Origin: Candidatus Doudnabacteria bacterium
GTDB taxonomy: Bacteria > Patescibacteriota > Doudnabacteria > UBA920
Assembly: GCA_038230955.1 (NCBI GenBank)
Contig: JBBRMG010000001.1
Location: 18,312 to 82,311 of the forward strand
Reading direction: 5' to 3'
DNA: 64,000 nt
The notes beneath the pieces were generated by a model, which saw nothing but the letters and a program-made list of their open reading frames with translations, ran no database searches and was not told the DNA's origin. Of the stretch, positions 19,183 through 29,580 are shown piece by piece. The translations under genes were made by a program, and so were the position numbers. Positions within the stretch are counted from its first letter, which is position 1. The number at the start of each line of letters is the position of its first letter.

Positions 19183-21309
19183 TTACTGTCCCTTACGGAC
19201 ATTAATACCAGCACGAGATTCAACGATCTTTTCAGTCACGTTGCGAGGGACTTCACCATAGTGGTCAAATTCCATAATGGAAGAGGCTTGGCCTTGGGTC
19301 ATAGACCGCAAAGTTGTGGCGTAACCAAACATTTCAGCCAACGGCACTTCAGCAGTAATAATTTTGCGATTAGTAATGTCTTCCATTTCATTAATCCGAG
19401 CACGCTTGGAATTAAGATCACCAATAACATCGCCCATGTTTGCTTCAGGGGTAGTGACAACCACTTTCATGATTGGTTCAAGCAAGATTGGTTCACCCTT
19501 CTTCACTGCTTCTTGGAAAGCCTTCGAACCGGCAATCTTGAACGCCATTTCAGAGGAATCAACTTCATGATATGAACCATCGTACAAAGTGACTTTAAAG
19601 TCGACTACGGGATAACCGGCGATAACACCGTTAGCGGCAGATTCCTGAACACCTTTGTCTACCGGCTTGATGTATTCTTTTGGAATAGCACCACCGACGA
19701 TTTCGTCGACGAACTCATAACCGGCACCGCGCTCAAGTGGGGTAACGCGCAAATATACGTGGCCATATTGACCCCGACCACCAGTTTGGCGGATGTATTT
19801 CGTTTCAGCCTGAGCTTCCTTTTTGAAAGACTCCTTGAAAGCTACTTCAGGCTTACCAACATTGGCTTCTACTTTAAATTCACGCTTCATGCGATCTACC
19901 AAAATTTCCAAATGCAATTCGCCCATACCAGCAATAATAGTTTGCTGAGTTTCTTCGTCGGAAGTAACTTTGAAAGTCGGATCTTCTTCCGCCAATTTCT
20001 GCATAGCAATACCCATTTTTTCTTGGTCAGCCTTTGTCTTCGGCTCAATCGACATAGAAATAACTGGGTCAGCAAATTTAATCTTTTCTAATTCAATGGG
20101 GTCAGATTCCGCGCAAAGGGTGTCGGCAGTAATAGTGTCTTTCGGACCTACTAAAGCACAAATATCACCGGCGTAGACTTCTTTCACTTCATCGCGCTGA
20201 TCAGCGCGCATGCGCACCATACGGCCAACGCGTTCACGGTTGCCACTGCGAGCATTTAGTACATACGAACCAGCTTCCAATTTTCCGGAATACACGCGGA
20301 AGAACACCAGACGACCAACGAATGGGTCGGTAGCGATTTTGAAAGCCAAAGCAGTAAACGGTTCGTCGTCACTTGGGTTACGAATTAGCTCTTCCCCATT
20401 GCGCGGGTTATGCCCCTTTACCGGACCCTTGTCTAACGGGCTTGGCAAGAAGTTAGTAACACCATCAAGCAATGTTCGAACAATGATACCGCGACCATCG
20501 CCGCCGAATACTGGGTAGAACTCACCGGAACGAGTCGCTTTGCGGATAGCAATCATTAATTCTTCTTCAGTCAATTCAGTACCACCAAGATACTTTTCCA
20601 TTAACTGGTCATCGAACTCGACGACCTTCTCTATTAATTCATGTCGATACTTTTCCGCCTTCTCTTTCATGTCAGCCGGTACTTCACCCACGACGAATTC
20701 TTTATCAGTAAAATCAGTGTACGTGTAGGTTTTCATCTGCACCAAATCAATTACACCATTGATTTCTTTTTCGAAACCTAACGGCAATTGGACCGGAAAA
20801 GCGTTCTTGGTTAAACGAGTGTGAATAGATTCAAGCGACTTGTAGAAGTCACCGCCAGTTTGGTTTATTTTGTTGATGAAACACATGCGAGGCACACCAT
20901 ATTTGTCAGCTTGGCGCCACACAGTTTCGCTTTGCGGCTCAACACCCATCTTCCCGTCGAATACGGTAATGGCCCCATCGAGCACACGCAAAGACCGTTC
21001 CACTTCAACGGTAAAGTCTACGTGGCCTGGGGTATCGATAATGTTAATCTTGTACTTCTTGTCTTTTCCATCAATGCTGATGTATTGCGGATTCCAGTAA
21101 CAGGTAACCGCAGCGGAGGTAATGGTAATACCGCGCTCGCGTTCCTGCTCCATCCAGTCAGTCACGGTTTCACCTTCGTGCACCGCACCAATTTTGTGGA
21201 TCATCCCCGTGTGAAAGAGAATACCCTCAGTCGTCGTGGTTTTACCCGCGTCGATGTGAGCGATAATCCCGATATTGCGGGTGTCTTCAATTGCGTAATC
21301 TCGAGGCAT
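19183..21309 (-). CDS. fusA: elongation factor G
   Basis: 708 aa with [17 protein letters not shown] and NKxD motifs. Confidence 0.97.
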
Positions 21310-21357
21310 AGTTTAATGGTTATTTATTGGGGGTTTTATAGGTTTTATTGTCATTAC

Positions 21358-21386
21358 TTGACAAATCTATTTTTTTATGCTATAGT
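21358..21386 (+). promoter_or_regulatory. consensus sigma70-type promoter (TTGACA, 17 nt, TATAGT) driving the small ORF 21409-21567
   Basis: ttgaca at 21358-21363, a 17-nt spacer, tatagt at 21381-21386, then a GGAGGA Shine-Dalgarno 9 nt before the ATG. Confidence 0.65.
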
Positions 21387-21408
21387 GCAGTTGGAGGATA
21401 TAGATTTT

Positions 21409-21567
21409 ATGAGAAACAAGACAGCGAGGGATTATGTATTCCCGATCATTTTATCTGCAATATTCGGTTTTGCTTTTGGCCTCTACAATAGAGGAACTGT
21501 GCAAGCCGGATTAGGATACGCTCTTGTCGGCGCAATCATCAGTTTTGGTATCAGACTAATGATGTAG
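21409..21567 (+). CDS. small hydrophobic protein (52 aa, two predicted TM segments)
   Basis: Near-consensus promoter, strong RBS, and a rho-independent terminator immediately downstream. Lies between fusA and rpsG on the opposite strand. Confidence 0.6.
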   Translation: MRNKTARDYVFPIILSAIFGFAFGLYNRGTVQAGLGYALVGAIISFGIRLMM

Positions 21568-21587
21568 AATTCGATGGGTTGCATGTT

Positions 21588-21623
21588 GACGGTTTGCTTT
21601 CACGAGTGAACCGTCTTTTTTTA
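21588..21623 (+). terminator. rho-independent terminator
   Basis: Stem gacggtt (21588-21594) / aaccgtc (21609-21615), then a T8 run. Confidence 0.75.
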
Positions 21624-21630
21624 TTCCCTA

Positions 21631-22143
21631 CTATTTCCGCTTGTTACCGAACCTTGCAAAGTGAGCAAACGCTTTGTTTGCTTCAGCCATACGGTGAGTA
21701 TCTTCGCGCTTCTTGAAAGCAGTTCCCTGCTTCTGAAAACCATCTAAGATTTCACCGGCCAGCTTCTGAGCCATTGGGGCGCCTTTTTTGCTGCGAGCAG
21801 CATTGATCATCCATTTCATACCTAATGCGGTACGACGAGGTTCTGGTACTTCCATCGGCACCTGGTAGTTTGAGCCACCAATACGGCGACCCTTAATTTC
21901 CATAATTGGGCTGATGTTTTTCAAAGCAGTTTCAAATATTTCGCGATTGTCTTTGTCAGCAGCGTCCGGAATATTCTTGGACTTTTCAGCAACAATATCT
22001 AAAGCTGTGTAAAAGATTTTCTGAGATACGGTCTTCTTGCCGCGTTCCATCATATAGTTGATGAACTTGGCGTACTTCACACTGCTGAACTTTGGATCCG
22101 GCAGTGGAGTGTGTTTATCGTAACTTCTTGCTCTGCGTGGCAT
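21631..22143 (-). CDS. rpsG: 30S ribosomal protein S7
   Basis: 170 aa with S7 motifs and str-operon position. Confidence 0.93.
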   Translation of the reverse strand: MPRRARSYDKHTPLPDPKFSSVKYAKFINYMMERGKKTVSQKIFYTALDIVAEKSKNIPDAADKDNREIFETALKNISPIMEIKGRRIGGSNYQVPMEVPEPRRTALGMKWMINAARSKKGAPMAQKLAGEILDGFQKQGTAFKKREDTHRMAEANKAFAHFARFGNKRK

Positions 22144-22274
22144 GTCGTCGTAAATTTAGTTCCCGGTTTCGTAGTCGAATAAATTCAACTTCTCAACCTT
22201 TCACTAAATTTCTCCTCTAAGAATTTTGCTTAACTCCCTATAGGGAGCCCAAGTAAAATTCTTTGTAATTACTG

Positions 22275-22700
22275 TTAAGCAGCCGGGGCTGGGCGCTTAG
22301 CGCCATATTTGCTGCGAGAGCGTCGACGACCTTCAACGCCTAGAGTATCTAACTTACCGCGGACAATGTGATAGCGCACACCTGGCAAATCTTTCACACG
22401 ACCACCGCGAATCATAACCACACTGTGTTCCTGCAAGTTGTGGCCAACTCCCGGGATATATGCGAGTACTTCCATACCGTTGGTCAATTTGACCTTAGCA
22501 ACCTTACGCAAAGCCGAGTTCGGCTTCTTTGGGGTGGTGGTATAAACCTTTAGACAAACGCCGCGAATAAACGGAGCGCCAGTTGGCAGGTTGATAACCT
22601 TGTTCTTGATAAGGTTCACGCGACGTTGCAGGGCCGGAGATTTGCTCTTCGACTTCAACGGATGGCGTCCCTTTCTCACAATCTGGTTGATTGTAGGCAT
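22275..22700 (-). CDS. rpsL: 30S ribosomal protein S12
   Basis: PTINQxxRKGR N-terminus and PKKPNSAxRKV. Confidence 0.96.
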
Positions 22701-22973: not shown

Positions 22974-23216
22974 ATGTCTACCTCAATTACCAAGCAAAAA
23001 AATGAAGCTCTAAGTATTTCCCTGCCTGCCCAATTAAAGCGGGATTTATTGAAACGGGCTCAAAATGACAACGTTGCCGTTAGTCAAGTAGTAGCTGAGG
23101 CTCTCAAAAAACATTTAATTCTCAAGGAATGGCGGGATTTGCAAGACATTTTTGGACCGGCACTGTTAAAACTTGGTATTGATTCAGATGAAGCAGTTGA
23201 GGAATACTTCGGATAA
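22974..23216 (+). CDS. ribbon-helix-helix (CopG-like) antitoxin
   Basis: 80 aa. The RHH pattern is SISLPAQLKRDLLKRAQNDNVAVSQVVAEAL. Its stop lies 2 nt before the PIN gene start. Confidence 0.7.
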   Translation: MSTSITKQKNEALSISLPAQLKRDLLKRAQNDNVAVSQVVAEALKKHLILKEWRDLQDIFGPALLKLGIDSDEAVEEYFG

Positions 23217-23218
23217 TA

Positions 23219-23641
23219 ATGCGATTTGTATGTGATACAAACATATATCTGGCAGCACTTCGTCGAGGTGGTTTTTGTAATACTGTACTGGAATTGATAT
23301 TAAGCACTGACAATACTCATGAATTGTGGGTTTCTGAATTTATCATTCAAGAAACCAAGAAAAAAGCTGCAGTGTTTGCTCTAAAAAAGCTCGCGTCTCA
23401 ATATGATATTGACAGAATTCTGCAAACAATTGAATCGAGCGCTCATATTTCATTTCCTTCCCGTGAACGAATCACTAATGTCTCACGTGATCCCGACGAC
23501 AATAGAATTCTGGAATGCGCTGTGTCGGCTCAAGCCGATGTTATCGTCACTATGGATAAAGATTTATTGGTGCTAAAACAATTTCGCGGCATTGCCATAG
23601 TCCATCCCAAAACTTTCATTTACATGCAGCCCAAGGACTAA
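23219..23641 (+). CDS. PIN-domain toxin (VapC-like)
   Basis: Acidic PIN residues are present (CDTN near the N-terminus, then DPDDNRILECA and VTMDKD). Confidence 0.75.
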   Translation: MRFVCDTNIYLAALRRGGFCNTVLELILSTDNTHELWVSEFIIQETKKKAAVFALKKLASQYDIDRILQTIESSAHISFPSRERITNVSRDPDDNRILECAVSAQADVIVTMDKDLLVLKQFRGIAIVHPKTFIYMQPKD

Positions 23642-24642
23642 GCATCCTCTCTTGTTAACATTTCCTCTAGCACACTTTCTTTAATACCATAGGTATTGCC
23701 ATGATTCATCAAGCCCAAATATGACTGCAAAGTCTCGTCCATGGGACTATTGCGTAATTGCTTCATCATTCTGCGCTTGGTAGTAGTGCGTATAACAGTG
23801 TGATCAGGAAAATGCACCCAGCCAAGAAAATCTACTCCCGAAACAAAAGTTTTCAGATACAGCTTATCCGGGTGCAATGTCAAATTTAGCCTACTTTTCA
23901 AGAATTCTGAAATTTGGGCAATTTGAGAAATTAACGCTTCTCTATCGTCGGACAAAAATACAAAATCATCAGCGTATCTTATGTAGTATTTTGCGTGCAA
24001 TTTGTGTTTCACAAACTGATCAAACTCATTCATATAAATATTACAGAACAGCTGTGATGTTAAATTACCTAATGGTAACCCAACTCCCGGCAAGGTAGAA
24101 AAACTATCAATAATTTGCTCCAGTAATTGCATTAGAGGTAAGTCCGAAATATATTGAGACAGTATACCTATGAGTACTCCATGATTAATGCTGGCAAAAA
24201 ACTTTTTTATATCACACTTTAAGACCCAACATGTCCGTCTATGGTTTCTACTCACTTTATAGGCAAACGCACGGAACCTCTTTATCGCCTTGTACGTTCC
24301 CTTATCAATCCGGCATGAATAGGAATTAGCAATAAAAGTCCTATCAAAAAACGGATACAATGTCCGGTACAAAGCGTGATGCAAAATCCTGTCTCGCACA
24401 GAAGCCTTGTGAATCTGTCGCGGTTTGGGATCAGTAATGCTAAATGCGCTATAATATGAGTGCTGGTATGTGCCGCTGGCCAAATCCCTATGCAACTCAA
24501 TGAGATTGCCCATTAAATTATGTTCAAATTCTTGCACATCTTTACGCTGTCTTTTGCCCCGAACAAACTCAGTCCATGCTTCCAGTAAATTTTCTAGTGA
24601 AATAATATCTTTATAATCATGTCTGAATTGAACCTTGCTCAT
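23638..24642 (-). CDS. DGR reverse transcriptase
   Basis: YADDFVF catalytic motif. The DGR-specific motif LGNLTSQ carries SQ where other RTs have QGxxxSP. About 335 aa with no maturase or endonuclease domain. A TR/VR pair lies adjacent. The ORF continues 8 codons upstream to a TTG at 24666. Confidence 0.88.
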   Translation of the reverse strand: MSKVQFRHDYKDIISLENLLEAWTEFVRGKRQRKDVQEFEHNLMGNLIELHRDLASGTYQHSYYSAFSITDPKPRQIHKASVRDRILHHALYRTLYPFFDRTFIANSYSCRIDKGTYKAIKRFRAFAYKVSRNHRRTCWVLKCDIKKFFASINHGVLIGILSQYISDLPLMQLLEQIIDSFSTLPGVGLPLGNLTSQLFCNIYMNEFDQFVKHKLHAKYYIRYADDFVFLSDDREALISQIAQISEFLKSRLNLTLHPDKLYLKTFVSGVDFLGWVHFPDHTVIRTTTKRRMMKQLRNSPMDETLQSYLGLMNHGNTYGIKESVLEEMLTREDA

Positions 24643-25023
24643 AGTAATAATAGTACCCCCCCCCAACGGATTTTACCAGTATTGCAAAAAGTAAAAATTG
24701 CCTATTTGCTATGGTTTGATTATTACCAAATTCTGCCCAAGTTACATAGGCATTCATTAGGCCATAAAGTCGATAATTTGTTTGTCGAACTCATAGAAGC
24801 GATAGTTTCTGCCAGTTTCTTGTCCCCGCACGAAAAACTACCTTATATTAGGCTAGCCATTAAGAAAAACGACACAGTCAAAATCCTGTTGATGATGCTA
24901 TGGGAAACCCACTCCCTGGATGGCAAACAATATATTGCGCTGTCTGTAAAAATCGACGAAATCGGAAGAATGCTCGGTGGTTGGAATGGTCAAATCACAA
25001 AACAAAACTCTCCTCGAAAATAG
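24619..25023 (+). CDS. avd: DGR accessory variability determinant (Avd-like)
   Basis: The C-terminus EIGRMLGGWNGQITKQ closely resembles Bordetella phage bAvd (EVGRILGSWIARVNRK), and upstream helices align. Lies next to the TR. It is on the strand opposite to the RT. Confidence 0.7.
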   Translation: MSELNLAHSNNSTPPQRILPVLQKVKIAYLLWFDYYQILPKLHRHSLGHKVDNLFVELIEAIVSASFLSPHEKLPYIRLAIKKNDTVKILLMMLWETHSLDGKQYIALSVKIDEIGRMLGGWNGQITKQNSPRK

Positions 25024-25043
25024 GAGGAGAGAAATGAAAGAGA

Positions 25044-25175
25044 ATTGCGGACGCGAAACACAAACTCGTTGTTGCCATTCCAATGATTGTCTAGCTTGCC
25101 ATTGTTGTTGTTCAACCACGGTTCGTCGTCGTTCCGATTGACGTTGAACAGATTCGGATTGCCGTTCGGGTCAGT
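25044..25175 (-). repeat. DGR template repeat (TR)
   Basis: About 132 nt and about 80% identical to the 3' end of the target gene. Nearly all mismatches place TR adenines on the coding strand against non-A bases in the VR. AAC-rich codons (NNNNG, NGNN). Non-coding. Confidence 0.88.
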
Positions 25176-25493
25176 TTTGTATAATATGCCGTCTGCTACA
25201 CCATCCTTTGAGTGCTCTGTTAGCATTCTGGGGATTGAATCGTATTCGGCATTTAAATATGCCCTAGCATACTACACCAAGTTTCTTCATTTTTTTGAAG
25301 TGTCTGCATGCACCACTCTATTTTTAACCGTAATCAAAAATATTCCCGAGGCATGGATACTGGATTCGGTAGCAAACAACCATAATCGTTTGCGTATGCA
25401 CCTATTACCAATGGTATTATAGCAAAAATTTAGGCTGCAAAGGACAAAGATACAAAGTGCCAAGACTAGAGCAAGCTAGTCAAGCACCAAGGA

Positions 25494-27587
25494 CTATTTG
25501 CGGACGCGAAACACAAACCCGTCGCTGCCATCCCAACGATCGCCTAGCTTGCCACTGCTGCTGAGCAACCACGGCCCGTCGTCGTGCCGATAGACGTCGA
25601 ACAGACGCGGACCGCCACCCGAGCCAGTTATGGGGTCCATGGCTATTCTTAAGTATTCACCATTCGGCTGGTCAGCATATGCCAATCTCAATTCTGGCCC
25701 TGTTTGCGGCGGACACAGTTCTAAATTTAATTCTTTAACCCTGTTGAAAATAGCTTCTAGGTTAGCACCGTTAGGAAATCCTAATTGCTCGACCGTAAAT
25801 TTAACCAAATCAACGCGTTCAGACTCGGACAATGCCCGTATTTTTACCAACATGCTTTTAGCGTAGTCAGATATTCTATTTCCTGTTTTCACTAGCTCCT
25901 GCTCGTATTGCATAGGAGTTTTAGTAGACAGCTCAATAGTTTTTCTGAATATCTTTTTCTCTGGGAAAGACTCATATAAATGCTGAATATGTTCAGGCAT
26001 TGTTCGCATTATGTCCGGAGACCACTGGCCAATATATAACTTTGTAGATTCCTTTATTTCCTGCTGCCCCAGAGCGATTTCTTCAGGCTTGCAGTCTATA
26101 TTGGCCACAATGCGAATAATCTTAGCGACGTCGGTCCTAGTCATATCAGGCGTAATTTCCATCTCACCCATTTTGAGGACAAAGACATTGTCATCCGGGT
26201 TAAAATCGTGAAAATCAACTTCACCATGCTCGGTTAAAATATGGTAGTCTTTGACTTTAATATTTCCCAGTTCGCTGTCAGAAATTTTCCTAAAGTCCCG
26301 CAGTTGGCCGGTGTCCGTTTGGGTAGTGCGAAGCTGTTTCAAAGCATCGATTACATCTGCAAAGTAAGGATCCTCCGGACTTAGGTATTCATCGTCCTGC
26401 TTCTTCATTTGCTCAATAGTTTTGGTTTTAAGATTATATTCCATTGTAATAATGGGCGTATCTCGATATACCTTTTGGCTACCGTTATCAAACTTAGGAG
26501 TTACCCTGAATGACAAAATTTCAATTTCACCACGCTTCATCTGGTTGATATACGAATCGCTTGTGCCAACGCAGTGTCTCATGTATTCTGATTCTTCCTC
26601 TAAGTGCGGCATGTTCAGCATGCGAGCGACATAATATTTACCTGACTCAGTTTGAACTAGATTTTCCCACGGATTCACCGCTGCGCTGTCTCCCATTTCC
26701 GCCCGCTTTTTGCGCATCTCTGCAATTTTTTGCAAAGTTTTTTCTTGGTGAACTTCCAGTAGCCGGTGCAAGCTACCTTTATCCGTATCGATAAATTTAG
26801 GGCTTTCGATAATAGCGTCAAATAAGTCATTCAAATCTATACTTTCATTGGCCGTGAAATGACGCGCCAATTTGAGTCTCAGCACGCTCTGCTGGCGCTG
26901 ATCAAAAGCAAAGTCTTGCTGACCGGAAAGCCTGCCACTTAAAGTTTGGTACGCACCATTGATGGCACTTTCTTTTTGCGGCTTGTTGTCAGGAGAAAAT
27001 GAACCCAAGGTTTGTTGGTATCGTTGGTTGAGTTCAGTTAAATACTTGGCTTCAAAAGCTTTTTTACGTTCTTCATCAACTTGCTCTGGCGATTTATCTT
27101 CTGTCAGTGGTTTCTCGTAATAATCGACTGCGTATCCTGCCATATTGTCTGTACGAATGCGTTCAAAGCCGAATCGTTCTAGGACATGATTCAACCTATC
27201 ATTCCAGCCATGAAAATTGAGCCGCATATAACCTTGTTGTTTTGCGTATTCTATGAAAGCTGGTATCTCCCGTAAAGCGCTGCGACCAGTCTGACGGGTA
27301 GTGCCGAAATACTTTATGTAAGCTTCATGCGGAATAAATTCTTCGCAGGCAATATAGCCAGTTATTTCACCTTTATCGCCAGTAATCAATTTGTTGAGAG
27401 GATGGCCATTTTCAAGTGTGCGGATGACATCCTCTACTGCCATAGACCGAATAGCCTCATCCACTTCAGTAATGCCTTGTGTGATAGCGCGGACGCTATC
27501 TTTTTGCTCCTCATTCATAACCAAGCCCGGCTTTTCTTCCAAGCGTTCCGGTATATATACGGTTTCTGGTGTATGACCTGTTTCCAT
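25494..27587 (-). CDS. DGR target protein carrying the C-terminal VR
   Basis: 698 aa from ATG 27587. The ORF is open to 27650 but that would overlap the upstream gene. The C-terminal 44 aa are encoded by the VR (…DPITGSGGGPRLFDVYRHDDGPWLLSSSGKLGDRWDGSDGFVFRVRK). Confidence 0.8.
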   Translation of the reverse strand: METGHTPETVYIPERLEEKPGLVMNEEQKDSVRAITQGITEVDEAIRSMAVEDVIRTLENGHPLNKLITGDKGEITGYIACEEFIPHEAYIKYFGTTRQTGRSALREIPAFIEYAKQQGYMRLNFHGWNDRLNHVLERFGFERIRTDNMAGYAVDYYEKPLTEDKSPEQVDEERKKAFEAKYLTELNQRYQQTLGSFSPDNKPQKESAINGAYQTLSGRLSGQQDFAFDQRQQSVLRLKLARHFTANESIDLNDLFDAIIESPKFIDTDKGSLHRLLEVHQEKTLQKIAEMRKKRAEMGDSAAVNPWENLVQTESGKYYVARMLNMPHLEEESEYMRHCVGTSDSYINQMKRGEIEILSFRVTPKFDNGSQKVYRDTPIITMEYNLKTKTIEQMKKQDDEYLSPEDPYFADVIDALKQLRTTQTDTGQLRDFRKISDSELGNIKVKDYHILTEHGEVDFHDFNPDDNVFVLKMGEMEITPDMTRTDVAKIIRIVANIDCKPEEIALGQQEIKESTKLYIGQWSPDIMRTMPEHIQHLYESFPEKKIFRKTIELSTKTPMQYEQELVKTGNRISDYAKSMLVKIRALSESERVDLVKFTVEQLGFPNGANLEAIFNRVKELNLELCPPQTGPELRLAYADQPNGEYLRIAMDPITGSGGGPRLFDVYRHDDGPWLLSSSGKLGDRWDGSDGFVFRVRK
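25497..25628 (-). repeat. DGR variable repeat (VR) at the 3' end of the target gene
   Basis: Aligns to the TR with about 25 adenine-specific substitutions. Followed 6 nt after the stop codon by the hairpin 25457-25487. Confidence 0.88.
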
Positions 27588-27630: not shown

Positions 27631-28239
27631 CTATAACAACTGTACCCCAATAACCCTTGAGAACACCGATACCACCGGCAACAAAATACGTTCTAGTAAC
27701 CCCAAATACAACATTATAAACACCAGAATAAATCCGAACCGTTCCCACTCTAAAATTTTGTAAGTTAGTGCATCGGGCAGGAATGAGGCTACCACTTTGC
27801 TACCATCGAGCGGTGGGATTGGGATAAGATTGAAAGTGCCCAAAACAATGTTAAGTAGTACTATCTGAGTCAAAATTGGTAAGGAAATATAGTTAGTCAA
27901 ACCCAGCTTAATTGGAATAGCGAAGATAATAGCCAAAGCAAAATTGCTCAAGGGTCCAGCGAGGCTAACCAAAGCCATACCGAGTTTACGGGGCTGAAGT
28001 CGATTAAAATTAACGGGCACCGGCTTGGCCGCACCGAAGATTATAGGACTGCCCAGCAATAATAAAGCGGCTGGCAAAAGAATCGAGCCGAATGGGTCAA
28101 TGTGAGAAATTGGGTTTAAAGTAATGCGGCCCTGTTCTCGGGCGGTATCATCACCCAGTCGTTCGGCCATTAATCCATGACAAACTTCGTGGATAATCGC
28201 AGAAAATAAAAGGATTGCTAAAGTGATTATTATGTTCAT
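27631..28239 (-). CDS. site-2 protease family (peptidase M50) membrane metalloprotease
   Basis: HEVCHG HExxH motif in a TM segment. Polytopic. Confidence 0.8.
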   Translation of the reverse strand: MNIIITLAILLFSAIIHEVCHGLMAERLGDDTAREQGRITLNPISHIDPFGSILLPAALLLLGSPIIFGAAKPVPVNFNRLQPRKLGMALVSLAGPLSNFALAIIFAIPIKLGLTNYISLPILTQIVLLNIVLGTFNLIPIPPLDGSKVVASFLPDALTYKILEWERFGFILVFIMLYLGLLERILLPVVSVFSRVIGVQLL

Positions 28240-29339: not shown

Positions 29340-29580
29340 CATGGCGGAGAGTTGTCTGGAGTGACAAGGACTGACAAAACCGTTATACTGTTTTTACCAT
29401 TCAGCCTAAACTCATGGTTTCAAACCCGTGGGCATGGCACAAAAACCTTTCAGAACATGCGGCTCTCCGTCCAGAGCTCTGAAAGGTCATGGCTCGAAAG
29501 GGTCATGGGTAGGTTTCCTACTTCTGGCGGGGGGCTTTATGTTTGCCCGCCCAAAGTACGAACCTCCATAGGGAGGTTTT
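29340..29580 (+). promoter_or_regulatory. candidate structured 5' leader or ncRNA of about 240 nt, ending in an RBS-sequestering hairpin before the small ORF 29581-29769
   Basis: A TATAAT-like -10 box lies at about 29326. Several stable hairpins are present (cctttcagaa...ctctgaaagg; ggcggg...cccgcc; cctccatagggagg). The last hairpin pairs the AGGGAGG Shine-Dalgarno sequence. Confidence 0.4.

Follow-up and report, generated by a model that had tools for sequence, protein, structure and literature searches.

A probably complete diversity-generating retroelement of the CPR type with a structured RNA upstream of its template repeat in Candidatus Doudnabacteria

A 64,000-nt stretch of a Candidatus Doudnabacteria genome (the window) carries a reverse transcriptase (RT) gene close to two similar repeats, one of which forms the 3' end of a large gene. 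The locus raises the question of whether these parts constitute a complete diversity-generating retroelement (DGR), as a first-pass annotation proposed, and what lies between the repeats. [quoted passage not shown] We put the probability that the element is an intact, complete DGR of the CPR (Patescibacteria) lineage, with the mechanism proposed below, at roughly 0.88. Its core parts, in the order target/VR, TR RNA gene, inverted avd and RT, are as follows.

25494-27587, minus strand: target gene, 697 aa from the ATG at 27587
25498-25632, minus strand: VR, the last 44 codons of the target gene
25045-25179, minus strand: TR, 135 nt (45 of them A); read in the VR frame, it has 14 AAY codons
24619-25023, plus strand: avd, 134 aa, on the strand opposite TR, RT and target
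23638-24642, minus strand: DGR RT, 334 aa from the ATG at 24642

Identification of the retroelement

The RT, whose ORF can begin further out at a TTG (24666), matches Pfam RVT_1 (E = 3.6e-22) and phrog_1423, annotated 'Reverse transcriptase' (E = 1.8e-108). The DGR-specific motif LGNLTSQ and the YADD motif, both reported earlier, were found, and the equivalents of R74 and Q187 of Bordetella phage bRT are conserved, with L in place of I181. The best PDB match is bRT itself (8ub7; E = 1.3e-45, 159 bits), followed at 1e-16 and at most 64 bits by group II intron-type RTs, one of them deposited as 'retron-type'; the kinship check suggested in the first-pass annotation thus points to the DGR RTs. 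The Avd-like protein said to adjoin the TR is likewise supported, by Pfam PF22296 bAvd (42.7 bits; cutoff 40) and phrog_3206, 'Avd protein of DGR' (E = 4e-14), with NCBIfam NF033474 DivGenRetAVD matching below the model's 80-bit cutoff (E = 3.8e-14, 52.9 bits). What had gone unmentioned is its inversion relative to RT, TR and target, the 5' ends of avd and the RT gene overlapping head to head. The same inverted placement occurs at about 20 related genome loci and at most of 120 metagenome loci. The arrangement (TR 25179-25045, minus; avd 24619-25023, plus; RT 24642-23638, minus) corresponds to architecture B3, written TR-(avd)-RT for its reversed avd, a layout typical of CPR bacteria (Wu et al. 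2018, PMC5758913).

TR and VR form a direct repeat of 135 nt with 80% identity, as had been estimated; the earlier boundaries (25044-25175 and 25497-25628) were right in place, with exact ends off by 1-4 nt. On the coding (minus) strand, 25 of the 27 mismatches fall at TR adenines, a bias already noticed and now quantified by a hypergeometric P of 6.9e-13 (45 A in the 135-nt TR), and the VR bases opposite the mutated adenines are 19 G, 3 T and 3 C. TR reads ...LNNNNGKLDNHWNGNNEF... and VR ...LLSSSGKLGDRWDGSDGF..., so that the example peptides given earlier for the two repeats were essentially right. Codon positions 1 or 2 hold 42 of the 45 TR adenines and almost all of the mismatches at adenines. 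In the VR, 24 codons can be diversified, for a theoretical total of about 10^24 variants. The other two mismatches are C to T, lie close to the 5' end (TR 25169 and 25164) and show some ordinary drift after the last homing event. No second VR is present within the whole window.

The 3'-terminal 21 nt of the TR (25065-25045, GTTTGTGTTTCGCGTCCGCAA) form an IMH-like GC-rich end and are identical in VR, so that no IMH/IMH* difference is visible within the repeat; TR and VR part company only past ...CGCAA. In some DGRs IMH equals IMH*, and recognition must then reach downstream (Wu et al. 2018, PMC5758913).

An alternative origin would be a diverged duplication of the gene 3' end accompanied by a retron, group II intron or defence RT. 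The best NCBIfam match of the RT is indeed a group II intron RT/maturase model, at 134.8 bits far under its 300-bit cutoff, and many DRT models from PADLOC match with weaker scores. However, neutral divergence is incompatible with the mismatch spectrum (P = 7e-13), the RT matches the Bordetella DGR RT better (159 bits) than group II and retron RTs (at most 64), an Avd gene adjoins, and neither intron RNA, retron ncRNA nor other Rfam families were found in the region. An A-biased TR/VR pair moreover recurs at 20 related loci. Mismatch spectrum, RT kinship and recurrence reject this origin at the sequence level, leaving it a negligible probability.

Target protein

27093-27515, minus strand: GNAT fold (aa ~25-165)
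aa ~167-296 of the target: helical region
26394-26765, minus strand: PcfJ-like domain (aa ~275-398); its conserved H-C-V-G motif includes an invariant C-x-G
25497-26099, minus strand: C-terminal module (aa ~497-697), ending in a divergent C-type-lectin fold with the VR

The target had been described as a 698-aa protein with no recognisable N-terminal domain. It is 697 aa long from the ATG at 27587, and it has both a GNAT acetyltransferase fold at its N-terminus and a PcfJ-like domain downstream. No Pfam acetyltransferase family matched the target at E <= 0.01. The site of the acetyl-CoA pyrophosphate motif reads R-Q-T-G-R-S in the target, versus the canonical Q/R-x-x-G-x-G/A, and in the family it has G in 47 of 57 sequences and N at the last position in 49 of 57 (consensus G-R-N); the cofactor motif of the GNAT fold is, as far as can be judged from these residues, atypical.

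The PcfJ-like domain matches PF14284 over profile positions 26-134 of 147 (32.4 bits; gathering threshold 25). In the H-C-V-G-T-S-D-S-Y stretch of the target family, C339, G341 and Y346 are invariant and the other positions are at least 90% conserved. To our knowledge, PcfJ itself has no tested function. Compared with PcfJ-like proteins (PF14284), the target is extended on both sides of the domain, by the GNAT fold at its N-terminus and by a hypervariable lectin-fold module at its C-terminus. PcfJ-like DGR targets are already listed as category g (Wu et al. 2018, PMC5758913).

At the C-terminus, where a C-type-lectin or Ig-like fold had been expected, a divergent C-type-lectin-like fold carries the VR. 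Similarity of the target to TvpA was undetectable, and Pfam FGE-sulfatase and DUF1566 are absent at E <= 0.01; TvpA is a surface lipoprotein, whereas the target has no export signal. With neither a signal peptide nor a membrane segment found, the target is soluble and apparently cytoplasmic, and CPR DGR targets are in general without membrane or secretion signals (Roux et al. 2021, PMC8144416).

The RNA around the template repeat

25416-25424, minus strand: extended -10-like box, TGCTATAAT (family consensus TTTGGTATAAT)
25180-25409, minus strand: structured leader RNA, directly 5' of the TR
25402-25385 with 25380-25368, minus strand: leader helix P1
25354-25348 with 25314-25308, minus strand: leader helix P2
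25342-25333 with 25328-25319, minus strand: leader helix P3
25291-25284, minus strand: A-rich strand of the leader
25277-25265 with 25191-25179, minus strand: leader helix P4, terminating on the first TR base
25262-25259 with 25252-25249, minus strand: leader helix P5
25235-25232 with 25206-25203, minus strand: leader helix P6
25034-25041, minus strand: U-rich strand just past the TR; predicted partner, the A-rich strand of the leader (25284-25291)
24998-25031, minus strand: hairpin 3' of the TR, an 8-bp stem (25031-25024 / 25015-25008) followed by the run TTTTGTTTTG

The 318 nt that separate VR and TR are no junk sequence: a -10-like box is followed there by a structured leader of about 230 nt that adjoins the TR. 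RNAalifold recovered 44 pairs in the leader, 33 of them with compensatory changes, and 96.3% of the cells in the leader alignment are paired, versus 37-45% when the alignment is slid, with the observed values reached by 0 of 500 shuffles. A covariance model of the leader 3' domain found 7 cassettes outside its training set, each abutting a TR, and the window copy scores 87 bits, inside the range of the other copies. The value for 97 distinct metagenome sequences is 94.4% paired cells, versus 30-52% when slid. An Rfam scan of the whole window left the leader/TR region without a hit that passes the gathering threshold, and a scan of 24900-25700 gave none at E <= 1; RT-associated motifs (Weinberg et al. 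2017) are covered by these scans only if they are in Rfam.

The A-rich strand of the leader and the U-rich strand beyond the TR are predicted to form a duplex that brackets helix P4 and the TR. In RNAalifold analysis of 14 full-length RNAs, each position is paired in 12-14 of the 14 and shows up to 4 types of pair, a support that is moderate because the segment is A/U-rich. The hairpin, 13 nt past the TR, matches in a terminator scan, has a fold z of -2.9 and contains the avd stop codon in its loop; it was present in 16 of 16 cassettes examined, with differing stem sequences. It is terminator-like, and by analogy its position would be that of the Avd-binding stem-loop of Handa et al., who report that 207 of 278 Avd-containing DGRs have a stem-loop immediately downstream of the TR (Handa et al. 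2024). Upstream of the leader, the -10-like box, at least as a recognisable variant, lies at the same position in most of 16 aligned cassettes and may be the promoter of the TR RNA; a sigma-70 scan made no call there because there is no -35.

These features could also be read as a cis-regulatory leader, riboswitch-like or protein-binding, that sets TR RNA abundance, or as a structured 3' UTR of the target, in either case outside the RNP. A -10-like box before the leader and a terminator-like hairpin after the TR do have the look of a regulated small transcription unit, and the tie of the leader to RT or Avd rests on sequence comparison. On the other hand, P4 extends to the first base of the TR and stops there, and the predicted long-range duplex brackets the TR, matching the logic of the upstream:downstream RNA duplex that is necessary in Bordetella (Handa et al. 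2024). Furthermore, more than 120 cassettes, differing in their targets, have the leader beside Avd and RT; it travels with these genes and not with any single target family, and its two subtypes follow Avd similarity (57-64% versus about 33% identity). We therefore regard a place outside the RNP as rather unlikely, and participation of the leader in the DGR RNP is preferred.

Family and activity

The target family comprises at least 223 proteins, mostly full-length (~700 aa); its named members are CPR, and it is so far known from CPR genomes and metagenomes. In clusters at 90% identity, variation is concentrated at the C-terminal end: the last 50 residues hold, for instance, 24 of 24, 20 of 42 and 20 of 38 variable columns. 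This pattern points to ongoing diversification at the level of the family, in which the cassette recurs with an A-biased TR/VR pair at 20 related loci, about 18 of them distinct, the window locus being represented by one recorded sequence.

The element might instead be a fossil, once active and marked by the A-to-N signature, with a VR no longer diversified and a target that is now an ordinary gene. The single recorded sequence would fit such a history, as would the ordinary drift in the two non-A mismatches. Target-family members without an adjacent DGR exist, and one of them is nearly invariant, with two full-length variants, on 12 contigs together, separated by a single substitution. Many genomic DGRs are inactivated, a warning given by Wu et al. 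2018 (PMC5758913). Against this, none of the three ORFs (RT, Avd and target) is interrupted, and the RT retains its catalytic YADD. The RNA parts are likewise preserved, with every leader helix, the TR and the hairpin intact, the 87 bits of the RNA model lying within the range of other copies. In addition, TR and VR differ at only 2 of 90 non-A positions, indicating a recent homing event. Inactivation is thus considered improbable, and an intact DGR remains the favoured reading.

Relation to known systems

The DGR type is already known from CPR bacteria: the Patescibacteria-restricted 'DGR clade 2' corresponds to B3 CPR-type DGRs (Roux et al. 2021, PMC8144416). The window element resembles these in host group, PcfJ-like target motif and missing export signals; nothing essential sets it apart, and it is a further member. 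In the accessible CPR-DGR literature we found no account of three of its features: the GNAT fold at the N-terminus of the target, the structured leader preceding the TR and the CTTTG repeats described below. Nor did we find this conserved structured RNA around the TR described elsewhere.

The element was also compared with the Bordetella BPP-1 DGR (mtd-avd-TR-brt) and the bRT-Avd-RNA structure 8ub7 (Handa et al. 2018, 2020, 2024). Both have a homologous RT (E = 1e-45) with the SQ motif, YADD and an R74 equivalent, an Avd protein, adenine-specific TR/VR differences, a GC-rich repeat 3' end, a stem-loop directly 3' of the TR, a duplex of TR-upstream and TR-downstream sequences (predicted here) and a C-type-lectin fold displaying the VR. 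They differ in that avd lies upstream of the TR in Bordetella but downstream and inverted in the window, and in that the structured non-template RNA is the Sp (~140 nt) 3' of the TR in Bordetella but the leader (~230 nt) 5' of the TR here. Unlike that of Bordetella, the window RNA appears to end at the hairpin and U-run, 13-47 nt past the TR. Finally, the Bordetella target is a phage tail fibre, whereas the window target is an apparently cytoplasmic multidomain protein.

Proposed mechanism

A minus-strand RNA of about 410 nt, containing the leader, the 135-nt TR and the hairpin with its U-run, would be transcribed from the -10-like box (25424-25416). RT and Avd would assemble on this TR RNA, the post-TR hairpin occupying, by analogy, the position of the Avd-binding stem-loop of Bordetella, and the leader helices together with the A-rich:U-rich duplex bracketing the TR may position the template. 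Synthesis of cDNA would begin near the GC-rich 3' end of the TR, with C, G and U copied faithfully and misincorporation opposite A, and would stop at the start of helix P4, which is the 5' limit of TR/VR homology (25179). The cDNA would then replace the VR by homology, a process consistent with the observed TR/VR pattern, so that up to 24 codons could be recoded on the surface of the C-type-lectin fold (~10^24 possible variants). Most likely, the VR would serve as a variable ligand-recognition module through which a conserved part of the protein, enzymatic or adaptor, is directed to partners that change.

Minor elements between the variable repeat and the promoter-like box

25457-25487, minus strand: imperfect hairpin after the VR, 6 nt past the target stop codon
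25434-25453, minus strand: three CTTTG motifs, 7-8 nt apart, in the interval from the VR to the -10-like box

The post-VR hairpin lies 6 nt past the stop codon, as first noted, but it is weak (z = -2.0; 8 of 200 shuffles fold equally well), and by inspection a comparable hairpin was not consistently seen among related cassettes. GC-rich inverted repeats downstream of the VR occur in only 34% of DGRs (Wu et al. 2018, PMC5758913). The CTTTG motifs recur across 16 cassettes, with 34 copies versus 3.2 expected and a spacing of 8 nt in 12 of 20 cases.

A diversity-generating retroelement of a catalogued type

The diversity-generating retroelement (DGR) comprises the following parts:

23638-24642, minus strand: reverse transcriptase (RT)
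24619-25023, plus strand: accessory variability determinant (Avd)
25045-25179, minus strand: template repeat (TR)
25180-25409, minus strand: structured leader RNA with helices P1-P6, directly 5' of TR
25498-25632, minus strand: variable repeat (VR)
25494-27587, minus strand: target gene, 697 aa

The repeat search found one long direct repeat in the region, 25045-25179 against 25498-25632 (135 nt, 80% identity). On the coding (minus) strand, TR and VR differ at 27 positions, 25 of which set a TR adenine against a non-A base in VR (19 G, 3 T and 3 C), the remaining two being C-to-T mismatches close to the 5' end. With 45 adenines in the 135 nt of TR, at least 25 of 27 mismatches would fall on A by chance with P = 6.9e-13, and the A-specific relation between the two repeats is thereby established by computation. 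The first-pass annotation, which had proposed this count, placed the repeats 1-4 nt off; the pair itself is real and the rest of its description is accurate. In the reading frame of VR, 42 of the 45 TR adenines occupy codon positions 1 or 2, and TR holds 14 AAY codons; the 24 diversifiable codons correspond to ~10^24 theoretical protein variants. TR and VR are identical over their 3'-terminal 21 nt (GTTTGTGTTTCGCGTCCGCAA), and divergence starts directly after. No second VR was found in a scan of the whole 64-kb window.

The RT matches Pfam RVT_1 and phrog_1423 (E = 1.8e-108). Its closest PDB sequence is the Bordetella phage DGR RT (8ub7; E = 1.3e-45, 159 bits, residues 19-319), followed at 1e-16 by RTs of the group II intron type, one of which carries the deposition label 'retron-type', in agreement with the earlier assignment to DGR RTs. 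In the motif alignment, GLPLGNLTSQ and YADD of the window RT correspond to GIPIGSLTSQ and YMDD of the Bordetella RT (bRT), and of the two bRT residues implicated in adenine mutagenesis (Handa et al.), the equivalent of R74 is kept and I181 is conservatively replaced by L. The best NCBIfam model is a group II intron RT/maturase (134.8 bits, under its 300-bit cutoff), and no DGR RT model is among the NCBIfam matches. The Avd predicted in the first-pass annotation is borne out by a score above the Pfam bAvd cutoff, a match to a PHROG family described as 'Avd protein of DGR', and 52.9 bits against NCBIfam DivGenRetAVD, under that model's 80-bit cutoff. The nearest similarity of the RT to the Bordetella DGR RT, the Avd and the intactness of the ORFs are thus established by computation; the DGR is real, and its original interpretation is right.

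The layout 'TR-(avd)-RT' is architecture B3, and a target category (g) of the same study includes a 'PcfJ-like protein' motif upstream of VR (Wu et al. 2018, PMC5758913). A Patescibacteria-restricted DGR clade, with targets usually without transmembrane or other recognisable domains, has also been described (Roux et al. 2021, PMC8144416). With this layout, this target category and such a clade already published, the window DGR belongs to a known type, catalogued since 2017, and illustrates it in textbook fashion.

Avd is encoded on the plus strand, against minus for all other parts of the DGR. At the locus of the closest homolog (L001), whose target is 68% identical, the order target(+), avd(-), RT(+) is as in the window. 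The avd and RT starts abut there (8971/8972) and overlap head to head in the window (24619 and 24642), so that each promoter would lie inside the coding sequence of the other gene, unless transcription of the TR RNA reads through into RT. Among the 51 genome loci examined that encode target relatives, RT and Avd are present in the window's arrangement in ~20 (two inverted as a block), and a TR/VR pair was found in 20 loci (~18 distinct), with 75-100% of mismatches at TR adenines. One contig (L015) carries a single TR and two VRs in two target genes (2565-2694, 5413-5542, 5865-5994), with 19/19 and 22/25 mismatches at A. The CPR-type (candidate phyla radiation) target or cassette also occurs in MAGs titled Gammaproteobacteria, Bdellovibrionales or Pseudomonadales (L008, L018, L029, L035, L037, L038, L046, L049), labels that are probably a binning or classification artefact.

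A covarying leader RNA upstream of TR

The consensus structure of 14 leaders (RNAalifold) contains 44 pairs, of which 33 show compensatory double changes. Paired cells amount to 96.3%, compared with 37-45% after sliding the partners by 1-3 columns, and both-side changes occur at 33 pairs, compared with 8-16 after sliding; in 500 column shuffles, the observed values were never reached. Helix P4 pairs 25277-25265 with 25191-25179, its terminal base being the start of the TR/VR homology. When the whole RNA is folded, an A-rich leader strand (25291-25284) is additionally predicted to pair with a U-rich stretch just 3' of TR (25041-25034), and the resulting duplex brackets P4 and TR. An 8-bp hairpin followed by TTTTGTTTTG lies 13 nt after TR and is called by the terminator scan; this hairpin is present in 16 of 16 cassettes with differing stem sequences, and in the window its loop contains the avd stop codon.

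Rfam gave no match to the leader region, either at the gathering threshold or with the limit relaxed to E <= 1. Built from 14 loci, a covariance model of the leader 3' domain finds the leader in seven further loci outside its building set and nothing in DGR-less loci, and its matches adjoin TR on the cassette strand wherever TR was mapped. A DNA pattern restricted to invariant unpaired or loop positions retrieved at least 120 metagenome stretches. Over 97 distinct sequences, in an alignment fitted to the model, paired cells reach 94.4% (30-52% slid) and the covariation score is 0.63 (0.08-0.17 slid). The leader family appears to be new, in that no description of it was found in the part of the CPR DGR literature covered.

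In Avd-containing DGRs, analysed from 40 nt before TR to 100 nt after it, a putative Avd-binding stem-loop just 3' of TR was reported for 207 of 278 systems, CPR included, together with an upstream:downstream 'stop' duplex (Handa et al. 2024). The hairpin after the window TR and the bracketing duplex fit these two elements; the large leader falls outside the region analysed. In Bordetella, the large structured RNA that envelops RT (Sp) lies 3' of TR; in the window, the leader lies 5' of it.

The spacer between VR and TR

The spacer separating VR from TR varies little in length, at 293-382 nt over 16 cassettes, and its sequence is kept across loci with targets only ~50% identical. Within the spacer lies an extended -10-like box (consensus TTTGGTATAAT; TGCTATAAT at 25424-25416 in the window), followed in the 5' to 3' direction by the ~230-nt leader running into TR. 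The box was not called by the sigma-70 scan because there is no -35. Two spacer ORFs of 58 and 111 aa were rejected as genes, their conservation being base-pair covariation and not codon-like. CTTTG motifs, mostly 8 nt apart, occupy the interval from the VR stop to the -10-like box (25434-25453, minus strand, in the window; same position in L001-L054), with 34 copies in 16 cassettes compared with 3.2 expected; they also follow some family members without an adjacent DGR (L003, L019, L025, L026). One locus with a target relative and no RT or Avd within 4 kb (L007) keeps the TTTGGTATAAT box ~80 nt after the target stop, together with the first leader bases, and has neither an RNA-model match nor a TR; it may be a decayed cassette.

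One RT/Avd/RNA unit beside many targets

In the metagenome matches listed, the RNA is followed by Avd(-) at +137 to +237 and by RT(+) at +513 to +691, and the order RNA-Avd-RT holds in 82 of the 91 listed stretches with at least 1.5 kb downstream. Together with the covariation, this linkage of a conserved leader structure to RT and Avd is established by computation. The upstream targets among these matches differ: only one is a full-length PcfJ-family member, in 38 the similarity is confined to the C-terminal ~70-240 residues (mostly ~150-200), and many are proteins of ~200 aa that carry other VR scaffolds. Since the RNA is followed by Avd and RT while the upstream targets vary, it goes with the RT/Avd unit rather than with any one target. 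In the metagenome loci (L056-L175), at least five or six different VR scaffolds occur beside this unit, with endings such as ...CRFAAVRK, ...FAFxVSQVS, ...WVFxRPRK and ...PSAVLAS, which makes the unit modular. Pfam gave no match for three other large targets of the lineage. Separately, nine metagenome loci carry the leader motif although their downstream sequence, 1.5 kb or longer, shows no similarity to RT or Avd (L075, L077, L081, L098, L131, L143, L160, L167 and one more), and one contig (L089) holds two RNA copies ~8 kb apart (1957-2062, 9964-10069).

Domain architecture and diversification of the target

The target gene carries VR at its C-terminus, as the first-pass annotation had stated, and encodes 697 aa, not 698. 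The annotation had seen no recognisable N-terminal domain; instead, a GNAT fold and a PcfJ-like domain (PF14284; 32.4 bits, cutoff 25, residues ~275-398) were found. An AlphaFold2 model of the whole protein, with 57 homologs as input, has a mean pLDDT of 85.7. Because fold searches with this model were swamped by GNAT matches, the C-terminal 298 residues were modelled separately, revealing a divergent C-type-lectin fold, one of the two classes that had been expected there. These fold classes are established by computation. The GNAT cofactor-loop motif is atypical (R-Q-T-G-R-S in the window, G-R-N in the family consensus). The PcfJ-like domain contains the stretch H-C-V-G-T-S-D-S-Y, in which C339, G341 and Y346 do not vary among 57 sequences and every other position is conserved to at least 90%. 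The N-terminus is acidic and the protein has no hydrophobic segment (maximum 19-residue Kyte-Doolittle mean 0.57); from its sequence, the target is predicted to be soluble and cytoplasmic. A profile search with the family against PDB sequences gave nothing meaningful, and the target has no match in PADLOC or PHROGs.

A search of the protein database gives 223 relatives (E <= 0.001). Of the 120 listed, most are full length (~700 aa), and the few named ones belong to Uhrbacteria, Falkowbacteria, Berkelbacteria, Shapirobacteria and Nomurabacteria. The assignment to CPR is based on how the records of homologous loci are titled. The first 520 positions of the family have a mean column identity of 45% with many invariant residues, and in the last ~45 residues only a scaffold is kept (GLW.L...P...W...FVF.R.RK). 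In clusters at 90% identity, 24/24, 20/42, 20/39, 16/26 and 20/38 of the variable columns fall in the last 50 of ~700 positions, so that in these relatives of the window locus the variation lies largely in VR, ~7% of the length. VR hypervariability is thus established at the family level. Of the genome loci with sufficient flank, about half have neither RT nor Avd within 6 kb. Two full-length variants of one such unlinked member, from Falkowbacteria (12 contigs in all), differ by a single substitution, inside VR. Such members may have been targets in the past, or may be diversified in trans.

A possible self-contained TR RNA and intracellular target

By analogy with the Bordetella paradigm and from the anatomy of the cassette, an RNA of ~410 nt would be transcribed from ~25409 to ~24998, and RT and Avd would assemble on it. 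cDNA synthesis would then initiate near the TR 3' end with misincorporation at adenines and terminate at P4, followed by homology-driven replacement of VR.

On the most far-reaching reading of the results, with a probability of about 45%, TR in this large CPR DGR lineage would be carried on a self-contained ~410-nt non-coding RNA with its own promoter and terminator. A covarying P1-P6 scaffold of ~230 nt would lie 5' of TR, permuted relative to Bordetella with its RT/Avd-binding spacer 3' of TR, and this family, absent from Rfam, would be common to cassettes with many unrelated targets. Among these targets, the one in the window would be an intracellular GNAT/PcfJ protein with a specificity module that the DGR reprograms.

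If correct, this reading bears on the question left open by Roux et al. 2021 (PMC8144416) of whether CPR DGR targets are really non-membrane. For the commonest CPR architecture, the analysis gives a concrete and testable definition of the RNA that serves the DGR (-10-like box, ~230-nt leader with six covarying helices, TR, hairpin and U-run). It also describes, at the level of domains, a family of CPR targets with at least 223 members (GNAT fold, PcfJ-like domain and divergent C-type-lectin fold, without export signals), which supports the view that some CPR DGRs diversify cytoplasmic proteins. The leader RNA family, the domain architecture of the cytoplasmic target and the use of one RT/Avd/RNA unit for many targets may be useful to specialists.

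Genomic context

The cassette adjoins an rpsL-rpsG-fusA operon (S12, S7 and EF-G; 19183-22700, minus strand), assigned by reading the translations and not by a family scan, and a site-2 (M50) protease gene lies on its other side (27631-28239). This context is chromosomal and not obviously that of a phage or plasmid; related cassettes sit in unrelated genomic contexts. At 22974-23641 (plus strand), an 80-aa ORF without a Pfam match precedes a PIN_3-domain protein (E = 3.7e-15) in what looks like a toxin-antitoxin pair, convergent with RT and overlapping its end by 4 nt (23638-23641). About 1.8 kb beyond the target gene, the Rfam LOOT RNA (RF03000) matches at 29403-29522 on the plus strand with 73.3 bits (gathering score 46.4, E = 7e-12).
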